DNA from: Gemmatimonadota bacterium
Lineage (GTDB): Bacteria > Gemmatimonadota > Gemmatimonadetes > Gemmatimonadales > GWC2-71-9
Length of the DNA stretch: 64,000 bases
Assembly (NCBI GenBank): GCA_003221005.1
Contig: QHTZ01000081.1
Location: 48,866-112,865 of the forward strand
Reading direction: 5' to 3'
Position 1 is the first letter of the stretch. Every line of letters starts with the position of its first letter. Of this stretch, positions 6,968 to 49,179 are shown piece by piece. Made by a program: the position numbers and the translations under genes. Under the pieces are notes generated by a model. The model did not search any database. It saw only the letters and a program-made list of their open reading frames with translations, and had not been told where the DNA came from.

Positions 6968-8926
6968 TCAGTATGGTTCGTCCGACAGCGGGTTGAGGGG
7001 CGGCACCGCCTCGCGCGCGCGTCCGGCGGGCTCGGCCGCCGCGACCCGCGCCCCTAGCGCCCGCCGGAAGAACGCGAGCGGGTCTTCGGGCCGGGCGCGC
7101 CGTGTCGCGGCGAGCGCGCGGCGCACGTCATCCGGCGCGCGGTCGACGATGAGGTCGTGCACCGCGTTCGGCCGGATCCTGCGGTCGAGCCTGAGGAGCT
7201 GGCGCACGACCGCGTCGGCGAACGGCAGATCGGCAGCGGGTGGGAACCGCTCGACGCCGTCCCGCCCGCGCAGCACCGCGGGCCGCGGGAACCGCACGAA
7301 GATCGGTTGCGTGAAATGCGGGTGGCGCACCATCAGCTCGCCGATGGGCAGGGTGGCGAGCTTGATCTTGGTGGCGGGCGAGAGCACCTGGTAGCCGGGC
7401 GTGGCCAGCTCGTCGTAGTCCATACGCCCGTAGACGATCGTGCCGGCGTTCCCCACCACTCGCCGATGTACCTGCGAGCGGAACTGCTCGGCGCCGAAGA
7501 GCACGAGCCCAAGGTAACGCCCGCGCTCCGAGATATCGAGCAGCATCTTGCGGACGTACGTGTCCGGCCCGTCGGCCGGCGCGTACTTGTTGAGCTCGTC
7601 CACGAACACCACGACGGCCTCGACGCCGAGATCGCGCCGCTCGAGGTGCTCGCGCAGCTGCGACACGACGCGCGCAAACACGAGGTCCTGGCCAAGCGGA
7701 TCCACGTTCGCCAGATCGACCACGTACACGGCCCGGTCCTCGAACGCGCCCCACGGCAGGTCGTTCGAGGGGCCGTCGTCGGTGACGAGCCCCTTGCAAC
7801 GGGTCGAGATGTTGGAGAGCCGGTTCCGGACCTTGCGCATCGTCGCGATGTGATGAGTGCGCCACATGTCGCTGCGGCCTGCCAGCTCGAGCCCGTCGAA
7901 GATGGCGCGGAACAGCGCATCCAGGTCTGCGAACGTCTGGACCCGATGGGTGCCGCCGAAGCCATCGTCGAACTCCCGGTTGAGCACCCGGTCGGCGAGG
8001 AAGTCGATGAATGCGTCGGCCTTGGCGTCGATGTCGTCGCGGTTCAGGAGCACTTCGGCGAAGTCGAGCACCTCCTGGAGGCCCCACACGAGGGGCTCGA
8101 CGGCGCCCACGAGGTCGGGATGGGTGCGCAGCGTATTGAGGTTCACGCCGTCCGCCTTGAAGGGCGCGTAGTAGCGCACCCGGCGGAACGGCTGCGGCGC
8201 GACCCCGAGCCGCTCGTAGCGGCGGCGGTCCGCGTCGTCGAGGCTCCCCGGCTGGTCGAGGAAGCAGAGGTCGGGACCCTTCACGTTGAAGCACACGGCG
8301 GCAATCCGTCCCTTGTGCGCCGGGAAGTGCTGGAAGATGGACGACAACAGGAACTCGACGGCGCTCGTCTTGGTCGCGAGTCCAGAGACGCCCGAGATGT
8401 TGAGGTGAGCCGCTTCAGGACCGTGCAGGAAGTCCGCGTCCAGGTAGACCGGCGCCTCGAGCCCTCCCGAGGTGTACAGCCCCACCGGGATGGCGGTGGG
8501 GGTGGCGCCCTGGAGGTAGGTCTCCATGCGGAGGGCGCGGGCCACGTCAGGGTCGGTCGCCACGAACACGCGGCCGAGCGGGACCGGCTGCAGCGGCTCC
8601 TCGGGCTCCTGGCGCAGCACGGCCGCGGTCCACAGCCGAATCTCCTGGCGCACCGTGGGGCTGTCAGCTGCGCGAGCGGGATCTCCGTCGGCGCCGACCA
8701 CGTCGTGCAGTGGGGTGGCAAGGTCGGAGTAGGCGAACCCATCCGTCACAACCCCGAAGACCACCCTTCCCTCTTCCCCCGTCCCACTTCCCTCGACCCT
8801 GACAATCGCCCCGATCCCGATCGCCGTCTCGGTAGCGGTCCAGAAGTGGAATTGGTGCGGCGTCGCCGGCTTGAGCTCGGTGGCGACCACCCGGCCGACC
8901 GGCTCCGGCGCCCGTTTCTGGATCAC
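6968..8926 (-). CDS. herA: HerA-family ATPase/helicase (HAS barrel + FtsK-HerA ATPase)
   Basis: N-terminal HAS-barrel-like strands, bacterial-HerA Walker A ISGVSGLATKTS, FNVKG, Walker B VVFVDELNKYAP, arginine finger ERGRYLG, GAEQ. Confidence 0.85.
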   Translation of the reverse strand: MIQKRAPEPVGRVVATELKPATPHQFHFWTATETAIGIGAIVRVEGSGTGEEGRVVFGVVTDGFAYSDLATPLHDVVGADGDPARAADSPTVRQEIRLWTAAVLRQEPEEPLQPVPLGRVFVATDPDVARALRMETYLQGATPTAIPVGLYTSGGLEAPVYLDADFLHGPEAAHLNISGVSGLATKTSAVEFLLSSIFQHFPAHKGRIAAVCFNVKGPDLCFLDQPGSLDDADRRRYERLGVAPQPFRRVRYYAPFKADGVNLNTLRTHPDLVGAVEPLVWGLQEVLDFAEVLLNRDDIDAKADAFIDFLADRVLNREFDDGFGGTHRVQTFADLDALFRAIFDGLELAGRSDMWRTHHIATMRKVRNRLSNISTRCKGLVTDDGPSNDLPWGAFEDRAVYVVDLANVDPLGQDLVFARVVSQLREHLERRDLGVEAVVVFVDELNKYAPADGPDTYVRKMLLDISERGRYLGLVLFGAEQFRSQVHRRVVGNAGTIVYGRMDYDELATPGYQVLSPATKIKLATLPIGELMVRHPHFTQPIFVRFPRPAVLRGRDGVERFPPAADLPFADAVVRQLLRLDRRIRPNAVHDLIVDRAPDDVRRALAATRRARPEDPLAFFRRALGARVAAAEPAGRAREAVPPLNPLSDEPY

Positions 8927-9909
8927 GAAGCCGCTTTGGGGAGGCGGGAGGCGGGGGACGGGAGCAGGTCCCGCGGGGCGCGCGCTCTCAGATACGTCTC
9001 CACGTCATGAATGGGATAAAGTAATCGATCCCACCGCGCATCGGGGGTCGAGACCGGCGCGCGCTCGCGCGCGAGCCAGCCGCTCACGCCCGACGCCGCC
9101 GTGACCGTTGCGGGATGGGCGCGCGCCTCGACCCGCAGCAGGCCGAACAACAGGTCGTTCCCCTCCCACGGCCACAGCCGCAGGTACCACGAGTAAACCT
9201 CGTGGTGCGCCCGACCCCGCGGGCGGAACACCGAGGTGCGATGCAGCGCCGGAAGCGTGAGGGCGCGCGTGAGGGCGTCGCCCTCGAAGTACTGCGCGCC
9301 GTGGCTCTTGATCACGCCGAGCGCGCGCGGATGCCCGGCGAGGCGGGCGGACTCGGAGAGCACACCGTCCACGACGAACCACTCTTCGGCGCCGAGCGAC
9401 GCGAGGTGCCGCTCCGCCAGGTCCTTCTCGAGCGCGACGCGGGCGTTCTCGACGGCGCGCCGTGCTGCCTCGAGCGCCGGCCCAGGCTGGCCCAGGGCCT
9501 CCTGAGGCACGTCCACCAGGTCCACGCCGCTCGCCTCGAGCGCCGCGCGCACGCCGGGACGCAGCGCGGCCACGGCTGCCGCGTGAAACTCCCGCGTCGT
9601 CTCCCCGACGACGCGCAGCCGGCGGTCTCCAGTCCGGCGTCGCACGGCGGACGCCACGTACGCCCGCACGATGGGCACGGCGCCGTCGTAGTAGGTGACC
9701 TTCCAGCGCTGGATACCGTCGAGGAAAGAGGCTGTCGCGGGGGGGGCAATGACGCCGCCGGGATCGAGTGGGTGGATCCGGACCTCCGTGTCCTCGACCA
9801 GCTCGGCCCCGGCGACCTCGCTGAGCTCGGTACGCCCCAGGCTCTCCTCCGGGACGTGCGACGCCCGCACGGCCCCTGCCGCCACGATCGCGTCCGCCCA
9901 GCTGCGCAT
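8923..9909 (-). CDS. nurA: NurA-family 5'-3' nuclease
   Basis: SFLDG, FVVDG, GVIKSH and LYPIHDVE motifs of the RNase H-fold NurA family. GTGA overlap with herA. Confidence 0.75.
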   Translation of the reverse strand: MRSWADAIVAAGAVRASHVPEESLGRTELSEVAGAELVEDTEVRIHPLDPGGVIAPPATASFLDGIQRWKVTYYDGAVPIVRAYVASAVRRRTGDRRLRVVGETTREFHAAAVAALRPGVRAALEASGVDLVDVPQEALGQPGPALEAARRAVENARVALEKDLAERHLASLGAEEWFVVDGVLSESARLAGHPRALGVIKSHGAQYFEGDALTRALTLPALHRTSVFRPRGRAHHEVYSWYLRLWPWEGNDLLFGLLRVEARAHPATVTAASGVSGWLARERAPVSTPDARWDRLLYPIHDVETYLRARAPRDLLPSPASRLPKAAS

Positions 9910-11226: not shown

Positions 11227-12401
11227 ATGCAACGGCGGGAGTTCGTCTCGGTGGCTGGGGCCCTGGTCCTGGCGGCGACGGAAGGACGGAAGGACGGAAG
11301 GGGGTGGCGGGGACGTTCCGTCCTTCCGTCGTTCCGTCCTTCCGTCGCCTCTCAGGAACCAGCCCTCTCGCCCGAAGTCTTCTCCCGCCGCCTCGCGCGC
11401 GCGCAGGCGGAGCTCAAGACCCGCAAGTGGGACTTCCTCATCGCCACGCCAGGCACGACCTACCTCTATTTCACCGGCTACAACCCGGGCCGGAGCGAGC
11501 GGCTCATCGCGCTCGTCATCCCCGCGAGCGGCGAGCCCGCGATCGTGTGCCCGTCGTTCGAGGTGGACCGCATCAAGCGCCATGCGACGGCGCTCGACAT
11601 CACGGGGTGGGAGGAGCCGGCGAATCCCTATAAGCTGGTCGAGCGCGTGGTCCGCGCGCGCAAGCCCCGGGCTCCCGGGACGATCGCGCTCGAGTCCTCG
11701 ACCGCGTTCGGATCGTATCTGGGCATCAAGGACGCGCTTGGGGGCTGGAAGTTTGAAGATGCCGCCGCCATCACCGACCGGCTGCGGATCATCAAGTTTC
11801 CCGAGGAGATCGCGCTGATCCGCCGCGCGATCGCGATCACCGAGGACGCGATGGCGGCCACCTTCGCGCAGCTCGCCGTGGGCGTAAGCGAGCACGACGT
11901 GGCGGGGGTGCTCGAGCGGGAGATGGAGCGGCGCGGCGGAGAGGGGGGCGGCGGGCTGGTGCAGTTCGGGCCGTCGAGCGCCCTGCCGCACGGCGGCCCC
12001 GCGAGCGTCACGCTCGAGCGCGAGATGGTGGTGCTGATCGATTGCGGCTGTCGCGTCTCGGGCTATACGTCCGACATCACGCGCACGATCTGGTTCGGCG
12101 ACCATTGGGCCGGCCCCTCGTCACCCCATGTGAGGAAATGGATCGCGCCGCGCGCAAGGTGATCAGCGACGCCGGCTTCGGCCGTAACTTCACCCACCGC
12201 CTCGGCCACGGAATCGGCCTCGACGGCCACGAGCCGCCGTATCTCGTCGAAGGAAACGAGGTCCACCTCGAGCCAGGGATGGTGTTCACGCTCGAGCCAG
12301 GGGTGTACCAAACTGGGAAATTCGGAGTGCGGATCGAGGATGACTGTCTGATGACGGAGAACGGAGTTGAGGTCCTGAGTCACCGACCGTCCAAACTCTG
12401 A
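11227..12401 (+). pseudogene. Tat-exported M24 Xaa-Pro peptidase, split by an out-of-frame deletion at ~12105
   Basis: MQRREF Tat motif, creatinase N-domain, LIDCGC...YTSDITRT in one frame; HRLGHGIGLDGHE, EPG, GVRIED in another frame (ORF 12042-12401). Confidence 0.85.
11274..11349. repeat. Octamer-array palindrome (GACGGAAG)x3 / (C/G)TTCCGTC x4 within the peptidase gene
   Basis: Read directly; lies in frame just after the Tat signal. Confidence 0.9.
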
Positions 12402-12766
12402 CGGGGACGAGGGACGCGGGACGGGGGACGCGTGGTGCCGAGGCGGCGGCGTAGGCTATAGATGAGGCCGATCAACAGCCCCACGACCTGATTGCTGAGT
12501 ACCAGCGCCTCGTCCACCGATTTCGCGGGCGCAAGTTCTAGGTCTCGCACCAATTCGAGATGCGTGCAAAGCTCCGTACCGGAACCGAGGGCAATCCCGA
12601 GCGCGTAGCCTTCAGCGATGTTCGCAGGAATCGCCGCCGCCGCTCGCCGGATCTGATCCGCGAGTCCATAATGGCGACTGAGAGGTGGCTCGAGCGTGAG
12701 GCGATAGGCGACGCGCGCGACGGCGCGACCGCGCGTCCACGCCTGCAAAGAATCGAGCTTTCGCAC
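12380..12766 (-). CDS. Four-helix-bundle protein (23S rRNA IVP / Avd-like family), ~10-aa internal deletion
   Basis: L.AW, YGLADQIRRAA..IPANIAEG and IALGS..EL.THL motifs. Only 4 residues between AEG and IALGS, versus about 14 typical. Confidence 0.9.
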   Translation of the reverse strand: MRKLDSLQAWTRGRAVARVAYRLTLEPPLSRHYGLADQIRRAAAAIPANIAEGYALGIALGSGTELCTHLELVRDLELAPAKSVDEALVLSNQVVGLLIGLIYSLRRRLGTTRPPSRVPRPRQSLDGR

Positions 12767-12868
12767 GAATAGAAGTTGGAATGCCGCCTGCCATGGTAGG
12801 AGTCATTCCGCCGCATCCATGGTCCTTTCGCCGCAACACTCGTCCCCCGTCCCTCGTCCCCCGCCCCT
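12402..12868. mobile_element. Candidate element: inverted heptamer arms enclosing the four-helix-bundle gene
   Basis: Left arm GGGGACG AGGGACG CGGGACG GGGGACG (12403-12430); right arm CGTCCCC CGTCCCT CGTCCCC CGCCCCT (12841-12868). Arms abut the flanking stop codons. Mobility is inferred. Confidence 0.55.
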
Positions 12869-14054
12869 AGTCTCCTAGCTTCTTCGCAAACCCCACGATC
12901 TTCTCCAGCGCCCGCTCGATGTCCCCCGTCGCCGCCGCGTAAGACAATCGCACGTAGCGATCGTCGCCGAACGCCGAGCCGGGGACCAGCGCCACCCCCG
13001 ACTCGGTAATGAGACGGGTGCAGAACTCCGTGCCGCTCGAGCCCCCGAGCGAGTCTACGCGGAAGAAAAAGTAGAACGCGCCCAGCGGATCCACGAACTC
13101 CACGCCTGGCAAATCGCGGCGGAAGCGGCCGACCACGAGGTCGCGCCGCTTGCGGAACTCCGCTACCATCCGCATCACGTCCTGCTCCACCCGCTCATCG
13201 CCCAGGGCGGCGGCCGCGGCGAACTGCGCCGGGTGATTCGCCCCGGTGGTGGTATGTGACTGCAGCGCAGCCATGGCCTTGGCGATCTTGCCCGGCGCGA
13301 GCGCGATGCCGATGCGCCACCCCGTCATCGCATACGCCTTACTGACCCCGTAGATCACGACGACGCGCTCGAGCAGCTCGTCCGGAAGATCGAGGAACGA
13401 CGGGGCCGGTCCCGGACCGTAATGGATGCGCCGGTAAATCTCGTCGGTGATCACCCACACCTTGCGCTCCACCGCCCACTGCGCGATCGCCTTGATCTCG
13501 GCGTGCGTGTAGACGCCGCCGGTCGGATTGCAGGGCGAGCACAGGATCAACCCCTGGGCCCCGGGCACCACGCGCTCGAGATCGCGCACCCCCACCTTGA
13601 GACTCCACTCCGGATCGCCGGGCACGAGCACGGGCCGCGCGCGCGTGAGGTGCACGATCTGGGGATACGACACCCAGGCAGGAGCAGGGATCGCCACCAC
13701 GTCCCCCGGGCCGAACAGACTGAAGCAGACGTTGAACAGCGACTGCTTCGAGCCGTTGGAGATGACGACGTGATCGGCGTTCACGGGCCGCCCGCCTGAG
13801 AGCAGCGAGAGATGCTTCGCCGCCGCGGCACGGAGCTCGAGGATCCCCTCGTTCGCCGGGTAGTGGGTCTTCCCCTCCCGAATCGCCCGCACGCCGGCGT
13901 CGGCGGGAATCGACGGGGTGGGGAAATCCGGCTCGCCCGCCCCGAGGTCGATCACATCCTCTCCCGCGGCGCGACGCCGCTTCGCCTCCTGGGAGATGGC
14001 GATCGTGGCGGATGTCTCGAGATGCTGAAGGTTGGGCGACAGCCCCTGCGACAT
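12867..14054 (-). CDS. Aspartate aminotransferase-like PLP aminotransferase class I/II
   Basis: GAGEPDF, SPCNPTG, DEIY, SKAYAMTGWRIG, GAFY, VPGSAFG, RLSYA. Start MSQGLSP. Confidence 0.95.
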   Translation of the reverse strand: MSQGLSPNLQHLETSATIAISQEAKRRRAAGEDVIDLGAGEPDFPTPSIPADAGVRAIREGKTHYPANEGILELRAAAAKHLSLLSGGRPVNADHVVISNGSKQSLFNVCFSLFGPGDVVAIPAPAWVSYPQIVHLTRARPVLVPGDPEWSLKVGVRDLERVVPGAQGLILCSPCNPTGGVYTHAEIKAIAQWAVERKVWVITDEIYRRIHYGPGPAPSFLDLPDELLERVVVIYGVSKAYAMTGWRIGIALAPGKIAKAMAALQSHTTTGANHPAQFAAAAALGDERVEQDVMRMVAEFRKRRDLVVGRFRRDLPGVEFVDPLGAFYFFFRVDSLGGSSGTEFCTRLITESGVALVPGSAFGDDRYVRLSYAAATGDIERALEKIVGFAKKLGD

Positions 14055-14125
14055 GAGCGACGTGCTCCGTGGCGGACGATGGCAATATCCGCTCGCGCGG
14101 TCGCGACGCGCAACTAGTCGCGAGG

Positions 14126-14154
14126 TTGCCTTTCGCGCGCCCGCGCGGTAGCAT
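14126..14154 (+). promoter_or_regulatory. Sigma70-like promoter
   Basis: TTGCCT-17 nt-TAGCAT upstream of the 14199 ORF. Confidence 0.5.
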
Positions 14155-14198
14155 CCCGCCACGAGCGGTACGTCGCCCTTTGACAACTCGAGGATCGT

Positions 14199-15458
14199 GT
14201 GGTGGCGCTGGACGAGGGCCGGGCCGCGCTGGAGCGCGGCCGGCCAGTGGTGCTGGTGACTCCCCCTGCTCCGGAGCAGGCGGGGGCAGTGTGGGAGTTG
14301 GTGGGGACCACCCCCGGGGTGGGGGTGGGGCCCGCCGTGCTCATAGCATGCTGCGACGCAGTGAGCGCAGCTGAATGGGCGGCTGTCGCGCCCGCCGGGC
14401 TCCGGGTCCATGCGGTCAGCGGCCTCGCCCGCAGCGCCCGCATCCTCAAGGAGCACCCGCCCGAAGTGCTGGTCGGCGCCGTCGCCGACCTCGCCGCGCT
14501 GGTCGCGCGGTCCGCGCTGAACTGCGACGCCGTCGCCACGCTCGCCGTCGCCTGGCCCGAGCTGCTCGTCGCAGGCGAGCAGGCCGCGACGCTCGACACG
14601 CTACTCGGCGCGGCGCGCGACGCCCGCCGCATCGTGCTCAGCTGGAATCCCTCCACACTCACGGACTTCCTCGAGCGACACGCGCGCCGTGCCGAGGTGA
14701 TCGGCACCCCGGCACCTGCGGCCGGGCCGGCGGGCGCCGCACGCTACGCGGTCGTCGCACCGTCACGCCGCGCCGCCGCCTTGCGCGAGGCGCTCGACCT
14801 CCTCGACCCGAAGCATCCTCTGGTCTGGGACGGAGACCCGGCCGAGCCCGCCGCGACGCCGGACGCGGTGTTCTGCATGCGGCTCCCCACGCGGGAGCAA
14901 TTCGCCACGCTGTCACGGCTCAGCCCGCCCGTCGTCTTCGTGACGGGAGCGCAGCTCCCTTACCTCCGTTCAATCGCGGCGCCGCTGACTCCCCTGCACC
15001 TCCCCTCGGGCGCCGATCTCGCGCACGACCGCGCGGAGGCGCTGCGCGCCCGCATCGCGGAGCGGCTCGAAGCGCGCGACCACGACGCCGAGCTGGCGCT
15101 ACTCGACCCGTTGTTCGAGCGGTACGATCCGGCGGAGGTGGCGGGCGCGATTCTGGGACTGCTGCGGGAAACGGCAAGCGGGAAACGTGAAACGGCCTCT
15201 CCTCCCCCAACCCCCGCTGGGTGGGTCAAGGTGTTCGTAAACGTCGGGAAGAAAGATCGGGCGAGCGCGAAGGATTTGGTCGGGGCGCTGATCCGCGAGT
15301 TGAGCCTCGCCAAGGCCGACATCGGGCGCATTGATGTGCGCGACACGTTCAGCGTCGTCGAGGTGACACCCGCCGTTTCGGAGCGAGTGGTCCGCGAGCT
15401 TACGGGAGTTACCATCCGGGGTCGCCGCGCGCTCGCGCGGCTCGACCGCTACGCCTGA
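14199..15458 (+). CDS. Degenerate DEAD-box-like protein with C-terminal DbpA RNA-binding domain
   Basis: C-terminus KVFVNVGKKD...DLVGAL...DIGRIDVRDTFSVVEV...IRGRR is DbpA-RBD. N-part has helicase-like remnants but no Walker A or DEAD. Confidence 0.8.
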   Translation: MVALDEGRAALERGRPVVLVTPPAPEQAGAVWELVGTTPGVGVGPAVLIACCDAVSAAEWAAVAPAGLRVHAVSGLARSARILKEHPPEVLVGAVADLAALVARSALNCDAVATLAVAWPELLVAGEQAATLDTLLGAARDARRIVLSWNPSTLTDFLERHARRAEVIGTPAPAAGPAGAARYAVVAPSRRAAALREALDLLDPKHPLVWDGDPAEPAATPDAVFCMRLPTREQFATLSRLSPPVVFVTGAQLPYLRSIAAPLTPLHLPSGADLAHDRAEALRARIAERLEARDHDAELALLDPLFERYDPAEVAGAILGLLRETASGKRETASPPPTPAGWVKVFVNVGKKDRASAKDLVGALIRELSLAKADIGRIDVRDTFSVVEVTPAVSERVVRELTGVTIRGRRALARLDRYA

Positions 15459-16087: not shown

Positions 16088-16693
16088 ATGCTCAACGGCG
16101 CCCGCCCCGGCTGGATCGAGGTCATTACCGGCGTGATGTTCAGCGGCAAGAGCGAAGAGCTGATCCGCCGGGTGCGCCGCGCCGTGATCGCCCGCAAGCA
16201 GATCCAGGTCTTCAAGTCCCACCTCGACGCCCGGTATGCCGGGCTCTACAACGTGGCGACGCATGACGGCCTCACGGTCGAAGCCGCGCCGGTGGACTCT
16301 GCCGAGGAAATCATGCGACAGGTCCGGCCCGCGACCGAGGTGGTCGCGGTGGACGAGGCGCAGTTCCTGGATCACGGGATCGTCGGCGTGGCGAACGCCC
16401 TCGCGGACCGCGGCGTTCGGGTGATCCTCGCCGGCACCGACACGGACTTCCGGGGCGAGCCGTTCGGCGCGATGCCGACCCTGATGGCGATCGCCGAGAT
16501 CGTCGACAAGTTTCAGGCGATCTGCGTCGTGTGCGGCGGGCCCGCCACGCGCAACCAGCGGCTGGTGGACGGCCAGCCCGCACAGTGGAACAGCCCGGTC
16601 ATTCTGGTGGGCGGGCGCGAATCGTACGAGGCCCGCTGCCGCCACTGTCATCGCGTGCCGAGGATGGATGAGGATCAAACTGCGCTACTCTGA
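16088..16693 (+). CDS. tdk: Thymidine kinase
   Basis: [29 protein letters not shown]...CRHCH. Confidence 0.97.
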
Positions 16694-16771
16694 ACGCGGA
16701 ACGCGGAACGCGGAACGGGGAATCGACGCTGGCTGGTTTGTTCCGCGTTCAACCTTCCGCGTTCCGCGTTC
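16692..16771. repeat. Heptamer-array palindrome (GAACGCG)x4 / (TTCCGCG)x3-4 filling the tdk-coaE spacer
   Basis: Starts inside the tdk TGA and ends at the coaE ATG. Confidence 0.9.
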
Positions 16772-21131: not shown

Positions 21132-21892
21132 AGCACCTCCTGGTGGACCCCGTGGGCCGCCGCGGGTGGGTCAACATGTCCTTCGACCAGGCCCTGCTCG
21201 ACGACGCCGACCGGTTGGGAACCGCCACACTCCGGCTCTACCGCTGGGATCCCCCCTGCCTCTCCCTCGGCCGCAACGAATCCACGCGCCACTACGATCG
21301 CGCCCGGATCGCACAACTCGGAATAGACGTCGTGCGGCGGCCCACCGGCGGGCGCGCGGTGTGGCACGAGCACGAAGTCACCTACGCCGTCGCCGCGCCC
21401 GTGGATAGGTTCGGCTCCCTGCGTGCCGCCTACTGCACCATCCATCAGAGGCTCGCGGCGGCGCTGCGATCCCTCGGCGCCGATGCCACCCTCGCACCCA
21501 CCCGCCCAACCGCCAAACCGCCTAACCGGCTCTCCGCCTGCTTCTCACACCCAGTCGGCGGCGAGGTGCTGATCGCCGGGTGCAAAGTCGTCGGCTCCGC
21601 CCAGCTGCGGCAGGGCGATGCCTTTCTGCAACACGGCTCGATTCTGCTGGGAGGGGCGCAGGAGACGATTGAAGCTGTCATCCGTCAGCCGTCAGCTATC
21701 AGACATCAGACTTCAGACGTCAGAACCGCGACGACGCTCTCGGCTGCGCTCGGTCGATCGGTAACGTTTGAGGAGGTTGCCAACGCCATCATGAGCACGT
21801 GGGGCGACGGCTTCAGCTCTACCGCCCCCTACCGCCCCTTACCGTCCCTTACCGCCCTTTTCTCAGACCCTTCCTGGACCTGGCGTCGCTAG
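21128..21892 (+). CDS. Lipoate-protein ligase / octanoyltransferase (LipM/LplA-like)
   Basis: [40 protein letters not shown]. Confidence 0.9.
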
Positions 21893-31322: not shown

Positions 31323-31475
31323 TTGCGCCCTGGCGCGCCCCTCTCCGTGGACGGAACGGCATTCATTTGCACCTACGAATGCACCTTCTGCGACAAGTGC
31401 AGTACCACGATGGCTCATAAGTGTCCGAACTGCGGTGGCGAGCTAGTCCGGCGCCCGCGGCGGCGCGACTTATGA
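31323..31475 (+). pseudogene. DUF1272-type Cys-rich protein lacking its N-terminal CxxC
   Basis: Not in ORF track. Reads ...AFICTYECTFCDKC...CPNCGGELVRRPRR and begins directly after the prpE stop. Confidence 0.7.
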
Positions 31476-31557
31476 CGTTGGGGATGGCGGTGCTCCTGGC
31501 AATTGGTGAGATCGTGGTGCAGGTGCGACGTCGGGCAACGTCCGCCTAGCCAGGCTC

Positions 31558-48675: not shown

Positions 48676-49179
48676 ATGCGACGGCGCGCCTTCGCCGCAC
48701 TCCTCGCTCTCGTCCTTAACGTCGCCTGCAACGGCGGCTTAGAGCCGATCCCCGTCTGCGCCAAGGGATTCGTCGGGATCTGCGGCACTGTGACGTTCCA
48801 GGGCACGGAGCCCGACAGCACCCAGGCCGTCTACATCGTCGCGTACCACACGTTCCCTCACTCGCGCGACAGCCTGTTCACATTCCAGCCGTCGCTGCTC
48901 CTGCTGCAGAAGCTGCCGCTTGACAGCAGCGCCGCGTTCTACGCTGTCTCCCTCCCGGCCGGACGCTACGAATGGGTTGTGGCGGTTTGGGTGAAGCAAG
49001 GATTCACCCTCGAGAACGCGGACTCGACCCTGCGCGAAACGGGCTACTATCGTGATCCCGCCGACGCGAGCCAGCCGGGGGTCGTGAACGTCTCCGCGCA
49101 AACCGAAGGGATCGACTTCGTGATCGATTTCGGGCGGATGCACCGTCCGTGCAGCTATTACACGCCGCCGTGCCCTTGA
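48676..49179 (+). CDS. Hypothetical lipoprotein
   Basis: Lipobox NVAC; beta-sandwich-like sequence. Confidence 0.75.
   Translation: MRRRAFAALLALVLNVACNGGLEPIPVCAKGFVGICGTVTFQGTEPDSTQAVYIVAYHTFPHSRDSLFTFQPSLLLLQKLPLDSSAAFYAVSLPAGRYEWVVAVWVKQGFTLENADSTLRETGYYRDPADASQPGVVNVSAQTEGIDFVIDFGRMHRPCSYYTPPCP

Follow-up and report, generated by a model that had tools for sequence, protein, structure and literature searches.

Why does a small gene of the PF05635/TIGR02436 family lie between two inverted arrays of tandem heptamers, in the narrow space between the stop codons of two other genes? The question is raised by a locus in contig QHTZ01000081.1 of a Gemmatimonadota bacterium (assembly GCA_003221005.1), within the 64,000-nucleotide stretch from position 48,866 to 112,865 that we analysed and refer to here as the window. 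Members of the family are annotated as ‘four helix bundle protein’ or ‘S23 ribosomal protein’ and have also been called S23p or Avd-like; we use IVP for all of them. We know of no role for this large family outside diversity-generating retroelements (DGRs). The analysis gives good support to the view that the window holds a cassette of the type known from the intervening sequences (IVSs) of 23S rRNA, here outside rRNA, in which the gene and its repeat arms are one mobile unit. In what follows G000 is the genome of the window, other G numbers are sampled genomes, L numbers are compared loci and C numbers are contigs of G000.

A unit wedged between two stop codons

The unit (12402–12868, 467 bp) consists of a minus-strand PF05635/TIGR02436 gene between 4× GGGGACG and 4× CGTCCCC, and occupies the space between the stops of two genes that converge on it, an M24 peptidase gene on the plus strand and an aminotransferase gene on the minus strand (Table 1). 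A single base separates the peptidase TGA (12399–12401) from the first GGGGACG unit (12403), and the right arm runs one base into the stop codon of the aminotransferase gene (CTA at 12867–12869, minus strand). The two arms are mutually reverse-complementary over 28 nt at 82% or, when extended (12404–12438 and 12833–12867), over 35 nt at 86%. The left arm is the 3′ arm on the sense strand of the gene, and the open reading frame (ORF) reads through it, so that it codes for the C-terminal tail of the IVP. Much of this had been anticipated by a sequence-only reading of the window, which described a left arm of four (N)GGGACG units beginning 1 nt past the peptidase TGA, a right arm of four CGTCCC(N) units ending inside the aminotransferase TAG, and a stem of about 28 bp with the ORF in its loop. 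Tandem Repeats Finder (TRF) recovers both four-copy arrays where they had been placed, and when the unit is folded as one 487-nt RNA the arm–arm stem closes the structure (minimum free energy −234.9 kcal/mol, z −3.25, none of 100 shuffles equal). The flank-to-flank inverted-repeat score of the locus is 20. As a control we took 400 random 310-nt pseudo-genes in G000 and recorded the best inverted repeat between their flanks, which scored at most 15.

The arms (28–35 nt, 82–86% complementary) agree with the terminal-repeat stem of about 28 bp that surrounds the ORF in rRNA IVSs, and the unit shares with the ORF-bearing 23S IVSs of Coxiella and Leptospira a PF05635 gene in the loop. The insertion site differs: the IVSs sit in helix 25 or 45 of 23S rRNA, whereas the unit lies between two protein genes. 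It holds a single ORF, with neither transposase nor reverse transcriptase (RT), and comparison with Rfam gave no relevant match.

The product matches PF05635 with an E value of 3.2e-17 (63.1 bits against a cut-off of 33.8) and TIGR02436 with 61.4 bits (cut-off 24). Its AlphaFold2 model, computed with 21 aligned relatives, has four helices and a pLDDT of 92.1; Foldseek matches the model to XCC0516 (2GSC; TMt 0.81, rmsd 1.8), to BT_0352 (2RLD; TMt 0.79) and to Avd (4DWL, TMt 0.76; Avd chains of the DGR ribonucleoprotein 8UB7, 0.78). The IVP/Avd-like four-helix bundle assigned to the gene from its sequence is thus upheld by both profiles and by the predicted fold. 2GSC is cited as a homopentameric ring in Warrier et al. 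(2016; PMC4990558); by homology the IVP, like Avd, which has the same fold, would form a pentameric ring.

The window copy has a 10-residue in-frame deletion after AEGYALG and is the only gapped one of 21 sequences: the residues are present in 20/20 aligned relatives and read TTPQFI[RK]FLR in the G003 and L007 orthologues. The invariant W10, Q38, R41, N49, A51, E52, G53, G61, S62 and E65 are kept. Within the Q..R...S...N..E motif, Q38, R41, N49 and E52 are in place and S45 has become alanine (the family motif is written GxxRxxxSxxxNxxE in the pertinent passage of Zhang et al., 2013; PMC3936711). The window copy may be impaired by its deletion. The IVP family is nevertheless under purifying selection, since the orthologues at this site have a nonsynonymous divergence (dN) of 0.11–0.23 with saturated synonymous divergence (dS), the adjoining aminotransferase having dN 0.12 and dS 1.23.

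Filled and empty sites

If the 467 bp were a self-contained unit, as the sequence-only reading supposed, alignment of orthologous peptidase–aminotransferase junctions should reveal empty sites, and it does. Arms and gene are present in G000, G003 and L007 (the L007 aminotransferase being 84% identical). Both are missing from L008 and L014, where the stop codons overlap in CTAG with zero intergenic DNA, and from G001, where 12 nt separate the stops. Relatives therefore carry arms plus gene or neither, and the gene is not vertically conserved at this locus in all of them. Three further IVP sites of G000 vary likewise within the genus. The C66 site is filled in G000, G002 and G005 and empty in G001, G003 and G004 (63, 34 and 52 nt between the flanks, respectively). 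The C132 site holds an IVP copy in G000, G001 and G002 and lacks one in G003 (28 nt), G005 (15 nt) and G004 (101 nt), and the C52 site is filled in G000 and G001 and empty in G002 (13 nt), G004 (13 nt) and G003 (154 nt); the calls at C132 and C52 come from BLAST coordinates only. G004, which belongs to the genus of the window and is 100% complete, is empty at three of the four IVP sites, the window site being rearranged there. No single tree accommodates all four patterns, and gains or precise losses must therefore have recurred. The gene and its arms come and go together.

The same design in other bacteria

G000 is a 2.79-Mb Gemmatimonadales metagenome-assembled genome with 69% G+C and 94% completeness. 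When its PF05635 genes were collected and their flanks tested, as the sequence-only reading had advised, six genes were found and five of them proved to be flanked by matched inverted arrays scoring 17–23; the pair at the sixth (C132) is degenerate, with two units and a score of 10. The copies each have their own unit: GGGGACG, GGAACGC, GCGGTAAGRG (a 10-mer), a GGCGGTC-type unit, CCAATGT and TAGACGC. The CCAATGT copy (C39) has AT-rich units in this G+C-rich genome and lies directly after 5S rRNA, on the opposite strand.

Among relatives, 16/21 have the gene, and 21 of their 28 PF05635 loci have matched inverted arms scoring at least 16, whereas displaced controls at the same loci all score 15 or less. 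Across the order the gene was found in 86/101 Gemmatimonadales genomes, a tally that includes G114, flagged unpublished. In cyanobacteria of the order of Richelia the gene occurs in 21/26 genomes; 19/29 loci reach the threshold and 18/29 have period 7 in both arms, against 1/53 controls for each. Four distant genomes (Rhodothermales, Planctopirus, Richelia and a verrucomicrobium) have 7/19 loci at or above the threshold and period 7 in both arms at 11/19. The family was not found in G025, G027, G028 and G030, which were reached through other loci, and weak matches in G026 and G029 (L204–L207) were left out of the analysis. The idea that flanking arrays are no commoner at these genes than at random ones can therefore be set aside: three groups with 5/6, 21/28 and 19/29 armed loci face control rates of 0/400 and 1/53.

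Clear arms are also seen at three of the five loci fetched from named strains, on Gemmatirosa kalamazoonensis plasmid 1 (unit GGGCAGGA), on Nostoc punctiforme pNPUN01 (TCAGGAG) and on pANA02 of Anabaena sp. 90 (L312; GGTGACA), the last between cas6 and cas4. The copy on a Picosynechococcus PCC 7003 plasmid (L311), between cmr2 and cmr3, has weaker arms, and that on pGamma of Nostoc PCC 7120 has an array on one side only, with an ISL3 transposase gene adjoining. The family has been listed inside cas loci (Zhang et al., 2013, PMC3936711; Altae-Tran et al., 2023, PMC10910872), and the cas-locus passages of the two papers make no mention of repeats; the published ‘CRISPR association’ is probably insertion into operon spacers. 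The design, then, is an arm of about four units with free sequence, whose period is mostly 7 and sometimes 8 or 10. It recurs in Gemmatimonadota and in Cyanobacteria, and in weaker form in Rhodothermales, Planctomycetota and Verrucomicrobiota.

Gene-less hairpins accompany the gene

A TRF-based census of G000 gave 90 paired inverted arrays (104 pair rows before pruning) in about 12 unit families, with loops mostly of 16–44 nt (median 24). Period 7 arms (n = 102) have a mean length of 29.4 nt and 4.2 copies on average, period 8 arms (n = 41) 29.9 nt and 3.7 copies, and period 10 arms (n = 20) 40.7 nt and 4.1 copies; the number of units is therefore steadier than the length of the arm. The sequence-only reading had suggested that the unit is the gene-carrying form of the empty hairpins seen elsewhere in the window. 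Indeed, the gene-less hairpins of the window use the arm kinds of IVP copies (GGGACGN, GGAACGC and others), the second hairpin in Table 1 sharing its unit with the arms of the C66 copy. Array pairs with loops longer than 110 nt, other than IVP units, enclose ordinary genes or gene parts between separate hairpins, with no second cargo family.

Hairpins are also missing where the gene is missing. In six gene-lacking genomes (G004, G016, G090, G117, G141 and G083) no paired array was found in the 558 kb sampled, compared with 25 in 795 kb from eight gene-bearing genomes (G003, 2; G014, 5; G001, 2; G020, 0; G104, 5; G119, 5; G095, 0; G129, 6). The association has a Fisher p of 0.009 by genome and a Poisson P(0) of 2.4e-8 under equal rates, both of which overstate independence since the sampled genomes are related. 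The GGGACGN array family has 108 pattern matches in G000, 50 in G001 and 58 in G003 and is absent from G004, which has no hairpins in its 14-kb syntenic region. In cyanobacteria, single period-7 arrays are commoner with the gene than without it (11.3 versus 2.1 per 100 kb).

Arms and protein change together

Over 55 armed loci, protein identity correlates with the 6-mer similarity of the arms (Mantel r 0.34; 0/2000 permutations as high). IVPs that are 70–82% identical have units one or two substitutions apart, as in the sets CAGTTAC/CAGTTAA/CAATTAA, AATGGGG/CATGGGG/TAATGGG and TGGGGAC/TGGGGAT. In 15/15 related pairs the 1.1-kb flanks have no tblastx hit in common, and related copies are therefore found in unrelated contexts.

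Units also change at fixed sites. The in-frame hairpin that follows the Tat signal of the peptidase (MQRREFV...; Table 1) is built of GACGGAAG in G000, of GGCGGGAA in G001 and of GGGAACGC in G003, and in all three the ORF stays open at nearly equal total length. This hairpin recalls the in-frame palindromic elements of Rickettsia. The arms at the C66 site read GGAACGC in G000 and G005 and GGAATGC in G002, and another intergenic site has GGGGTTA in G003 and GTCAGGT in G001, in hairpins of equal length. As all of the units of both arms differ together, some homogenizing or replacement process must be at work.

A stem in RNA or paired arrays in DNA

We may wonder at this stage whether a role in RNA would be enough to account for the arms. 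According to this explanation they would serve a transcript duplex (an RNase III site, an insulator or a stabilizer) that releases or controls the IVP mRNA, while the arrays would arise by local replication slippage and the protein would have no part in them. The terminal arm–arm stem of the folded unit is what it predicts. The IVP gene follows the aminotransferase gene in the same orientation, and a promoter scan of the unit, leader included, found no promoter-like site that the IVP gene could call its own. A terminator scan found none within the unit either, the sole hit (12257–12270, minus strand, in the peptidase gene) being at chance level. Moreover, RNase III cuts in the heptamer-bearing stem of the Coxiella burnetii IVS, according to the passages of Warrier et al. 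(2016; PMC4990558) on this element.

Selection for a stem in one strand of RNA should, however, favour G–U pairs. Among the arm mismatches of the 55 loci, read on the sense strand, there are 52 G–U, 53 A–C and 93 others (Watson–Crick pairs, 1847), and with no G–U excess pairing is possible and not evidently what is selected. This symmetry fits better with complementarity at the DNA level, with two inverted copies of a protein-binding array, or with the use of both strands. The C39 copy, moreover, is antisense to the rRNA operon that precedes it. Slippage for its part accounts neither for the joint appearance and loss of arms and gene, nor for units that track the protein across unrelated sites, nor for hairpins that are missing where the gene is missing. 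A purely RNA-level role is the main competing explanation; it explains the stem but leaves open why gene and arms appear and vanish together, why the arms track the protein and why there is no wobble bias, and we consider it unlikely.

The window had been proposed to hold an undescribed mobile or RNA-processing system. The filled and empty sites bear out the mobile unit, while RNA processing draws no support from the even balance of G–U and A–C mismatches. The stretch was found in 20 sequencing runs, among them two small soil metatranscriptomes, whose contigs cover 12896–13318 of the interval 11900–13400, in the aminotransferase gene and outside the unit. In two DNA runs, contigs join 12425/12430 to 12839–12844; their short side of 22–27 letters is indistinguishable from other GGGACG hairpins, and they were not used as evidence of excision.

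A protein that may read its own arms

Taken as a whole, we find it likely that the locus is an IVS-type cassette, with gene and arms forming one mobile unit, and that the IVP recognizes its own arms, driving the spread and homogenization of arms and hairpins. We infer the recognition from the co-divergence of arms and protein, the co-occurrence of hairpins and gene, the steady number of units and the binding of a defined RNA stem-loop by the Avd pentamer (as reported in bioRxiv 10.1101/2023.10.23.563531). The IVP would bind its arm arrays, with about one unit per protomer of the ring, as DNA or as the RNA of either strand. This interaction, together with host enzymes or with an unrecognized activity of the conserved Q..R...S...N..E face, could then cause the arms to spread and to be homogenized, and the gene-less hairpins would be non-autonomous relatives of the IVP unit, by analogy with REPINs and their RAYT (see below). 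Read-through from the aminotransferase gene would give a transcript that carries the whole unit, whose arms may form a 28–35-bp duplex of the kind cut by RNase III in rRNA IVSs; we take such a duplex to be a consequence rather than a demonstrated function.

Several observations weigh against this explanation. Within one arm family the loops and flanks of the hairpins have no common sequence, unlike the deletion derivatives of transposons, and at least six arm families of G000 (AATGCGG, CGGGATG, CGGGAAA, AGACGTC, GACGGAAG and GTCGGACG) have no matching gene copy in the 94%-complete assembly. The genome samples of the hairpin census are small and come from related genomes; two gene-bearing genomes, G020 and G095, showed no hairpins in 80 and 100 kb, and the two classes of cyanobacteria, separated by presence of the gene, yielded no gene-less inverted pair in samples of 280 and 400 kb, so that the link between hairpins and gene rests on Gemmatimonadales only. 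Arms and protein could co-diverge through common descent alone, with no recognition of one by the other. Some loci fall below the repeat threshold (7/28 in relatives, 10/29 in cyanobacteria and 12/19 in the distant genomes). The target-site duplication is ambiguous, with TAG at both ends in G003 and TGA/TAG in the window, and the IVP has no recognizable nuclease, recombinase or polymerase domain.

Two further explanations can be weighed. In the first, heptamer arrays simply pile up in intergenic DNA, where a small selfish or horizontally moving gene happens to land. In its favour, arrays are plentiful, some stand alone or lie within coding linkers, and the IVP copy on pGamma of Nostoc PCC 7120 has an array on one side alone. 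Yet empty sites are devoid of any arrays, each copy has two matching arms that differ from the arms of other copies, the displaced controls have matched arms almost never, and no other gene is consistently enclosed; mere co-location is therefore very improbable in our view. The second, a remnant or satellite of a DGR whose Avd-like gene works with an RT and whose arrays are template or target repeats, scarcely deserves credence: the fold is close to that of Avd, and the concerted change of units at a fixed site bears a loose likeness to rewriting, but an RVT_1 search of the 94%-complete genome gave no match, there is no pair of template and variable repeats, and the unit has only 467 bp.

Relation to known systems

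The unit and the gene-less hairpins can be compared with several known systems. RAYTs are HUH Y1 transposases associated with REP palindromes, and REPINs are dispersed inverted-repeat doublets. Like the IVP system, REPIN–RAYT combines a single gene in its own inverted repeats with many dispersed, intergenic, gene-less doublets in lineage-specific families; it differs in that the RAYT has an HUH Y1 domain, whereas a profile search finds no Y1_Tnp domain in the IVP, and in that each arm is one palindrome rather than a tandem array. G000 does have two RAYT-like Y1_Tnp genes (C27:17688–18400 and C66:6324–6804), each between its own REP-type palindromes, and these therefore form a second, unrelated gene-plus-repeat system. 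A RAYT as the mobilizer of the arrays was considered and rejected, both Y1_Tnp genes being flanked by other palindromes and not by arrays. Contiguous 7-bp units, direct or inverted, are the cooperative binding sites of the omega (ParB) protein of plasmid pSM19035; omega differs from the IVP in its unrelated fold, its single fixed heptad sequence and the lack of an enclosed gene. The cyanobacterial short tandemly repeated repetitive sequences (STRR) are tandem heptamer repeats and likewise comparable. With miniature inverted-repeat elements and other transposons bounded by terminal inverted repeats the unit shares its inverted ends; it has no transposase, and hairpin interiors of one family are not related in sequence. 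DGRs have an RT together with template and variable repeats, of which the unit has none. PF05635 is the commonest Pfam family beside DGR RTs (PMC10053308).

Two of the components are already in print. The account of the Coxiella burnetii 23S IVS in Warrier et al. (2016; PMC4990558) gives it an S23p ORF, a 28-bp terminal stem and, in the 5′ arm, two or three tandem GACAGAT heptamers whose number varies between strains. The IVS is there called sporadic and discussed as selfish or mobile, with earlier proposals of mobility and Ralph & McClelland (1993) cited; in these passages the heptamers are mentioned in passing and not as a trait of the family. Rehm et al. (2015; PMC4692102) describe 70–75 convergent plus/minus pairs of GGGAATC repeats per Xanthomonas genome as potential stem-loops, as well as Nostoc GGGGA(C/T)T repeats, and read the repeats as G-quadruplex motifs; ‘S23’ and ‘four-helix’ do not occur in its main text. 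These are tandem heptamers as well, mostly intergenic, in convergent pairs that resemble the gene-less hairpins of G000, which differs in having many coexisting unit families and a gene in some loops. We found no paper that links the PF05635 family to heptamer arrays in general or outside rRNA, although most subscription journals and supplements were beyond reach, so that the link may be in print. ‘Undescribed’, the word first used for the system, is thus too strong for the IVS with its S23p gene and heptamer stem and for inverted heptamer arrays, both of which are known. It holds, in the literature found, for the link between the two and for its occurrence outside rRNA.

Features and further observations

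Table 1 Features around the unit, numbered from the first letter of the window
Feature	Position	Strand	Description
Gene-less hairpin	11277..11346		GACGGAAG x3 / TTCCGTCC x4, 15-nt loop; translated in frame, peptidase N-terminus
M24 peptidase gene, 3′ part	12042..12401	+	ORF list; Peptidase_M24 profile positions 125-208; TGA 12399-12401 abuts unit
Left arm	12402..12438		TRF: GGGGACG x4.0 at 12403-12430, plus degenerate fifth unit
IVP gene	12380..12766	-	PF05635/TIGR02436; 128 codons, GTG start; family core 12470-12751
Leader, 5′ arm to start codon	12767..12832	-	From sequence; site scan
Right arm	12833..12867		TRF: CGTCCCC x4.0 at 12841-12867, plus degenerate inner unit
Class I/II aminotransferase gene	12867..14099 (ORF 12867..14456)	-	Aminotran_1_2, E 1.6e-60
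Gene-less hairpin	16692..16771		GAACGCG x4.4 / GTTCCGC x4.6, 18-nt loop

Some observations stand apart from the argument. The M24 peptidase gene is split over two frames at 12042–12162, with profile positions 102–124 missing; contigs from two independent metagenome runs break at 12101–12106 with loose ends, and the G003 alignment breaks there too. A fault in the assembly is more probable here than a pseudogene.

Arrays are also found inside coding sequences. CTTCCCT x4 (8766–8794) lies in the N-terminal part of the minus-strand ORF 6968–8926 and is missing in G004, GGGAGGC x3.7 (8939–8964) lies in the C-terminus of the minus-strand ORF 8923–9909, and the linkers of an E2 acyltransferase hold arrays as well (C52:862–1162 and C120:37323–38195). 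Single arrays for which no inverted partner was detected are CCCAACCG x4 (21497–21528), CGTCAGA x6-7 (21673–21724) and CTACCGCCCC x3.9 (21819–21857); G001 has related arrays at two of these three sites and G004 at none.

At two IVP loci, C39:306–833 and L309 (527–1088, on Gemmatirosa plasmid 1), the gene follows a short hairpin with left arm, loop and right arm, and the right arm is repeated beyond the gene, a layout in which recombination between the direct arm copies would leave an empty hairpin. At the gene-less C66 site of G001 (L318, G001:C23, ~31471–31535), the half-arrays GGGGACG x3 and GACCGCC x4 adjoin each other and look as if arms of two families had met.

Significance

A far broader proposal would make PF05635 proteins the dedicated partners of tandem-heptamer arrays across bacteria. 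The ring would read about 7 nt per protomer and drive the copying, relocation and concerted rewriting of the arrays with neither a canonical transposase nor an RT, and the rRNA IVSs, the cyanobacterial STRR heptamers, the Xanthomonas GGGAATC repeats, the hairpins of Gemmatimonadales genomes, ~90 in each (those in frame included), and the Avd of DGRs would all belong to one protein-guided repeat system. We offer it tentatively, as a speculation that could well prove wrong.

To our knowledge, the tandem heptamers of cyanobacteria and Xanthomonas and the rRNA IVSs have all been on record for decades and have remained unexplained. Should the gene and the arrays prove to be one system, three puzzles would merge into one. 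This would also explain why the IVP gene turns up inside cas operons and would add a mobile element with no recognizable transposase, and it might expose a modular reading of nucleic acid, one unit per protomer. The question can be tested in strains that are cultured and partly tractable, namely Nostoc punctiforme PCC 73102, Anabaena sp. 90 and Gemmatirosa kalamazoonensis KBS708. The unit between the two stop codons may then link several long-puzzling repeat families to one protein family.

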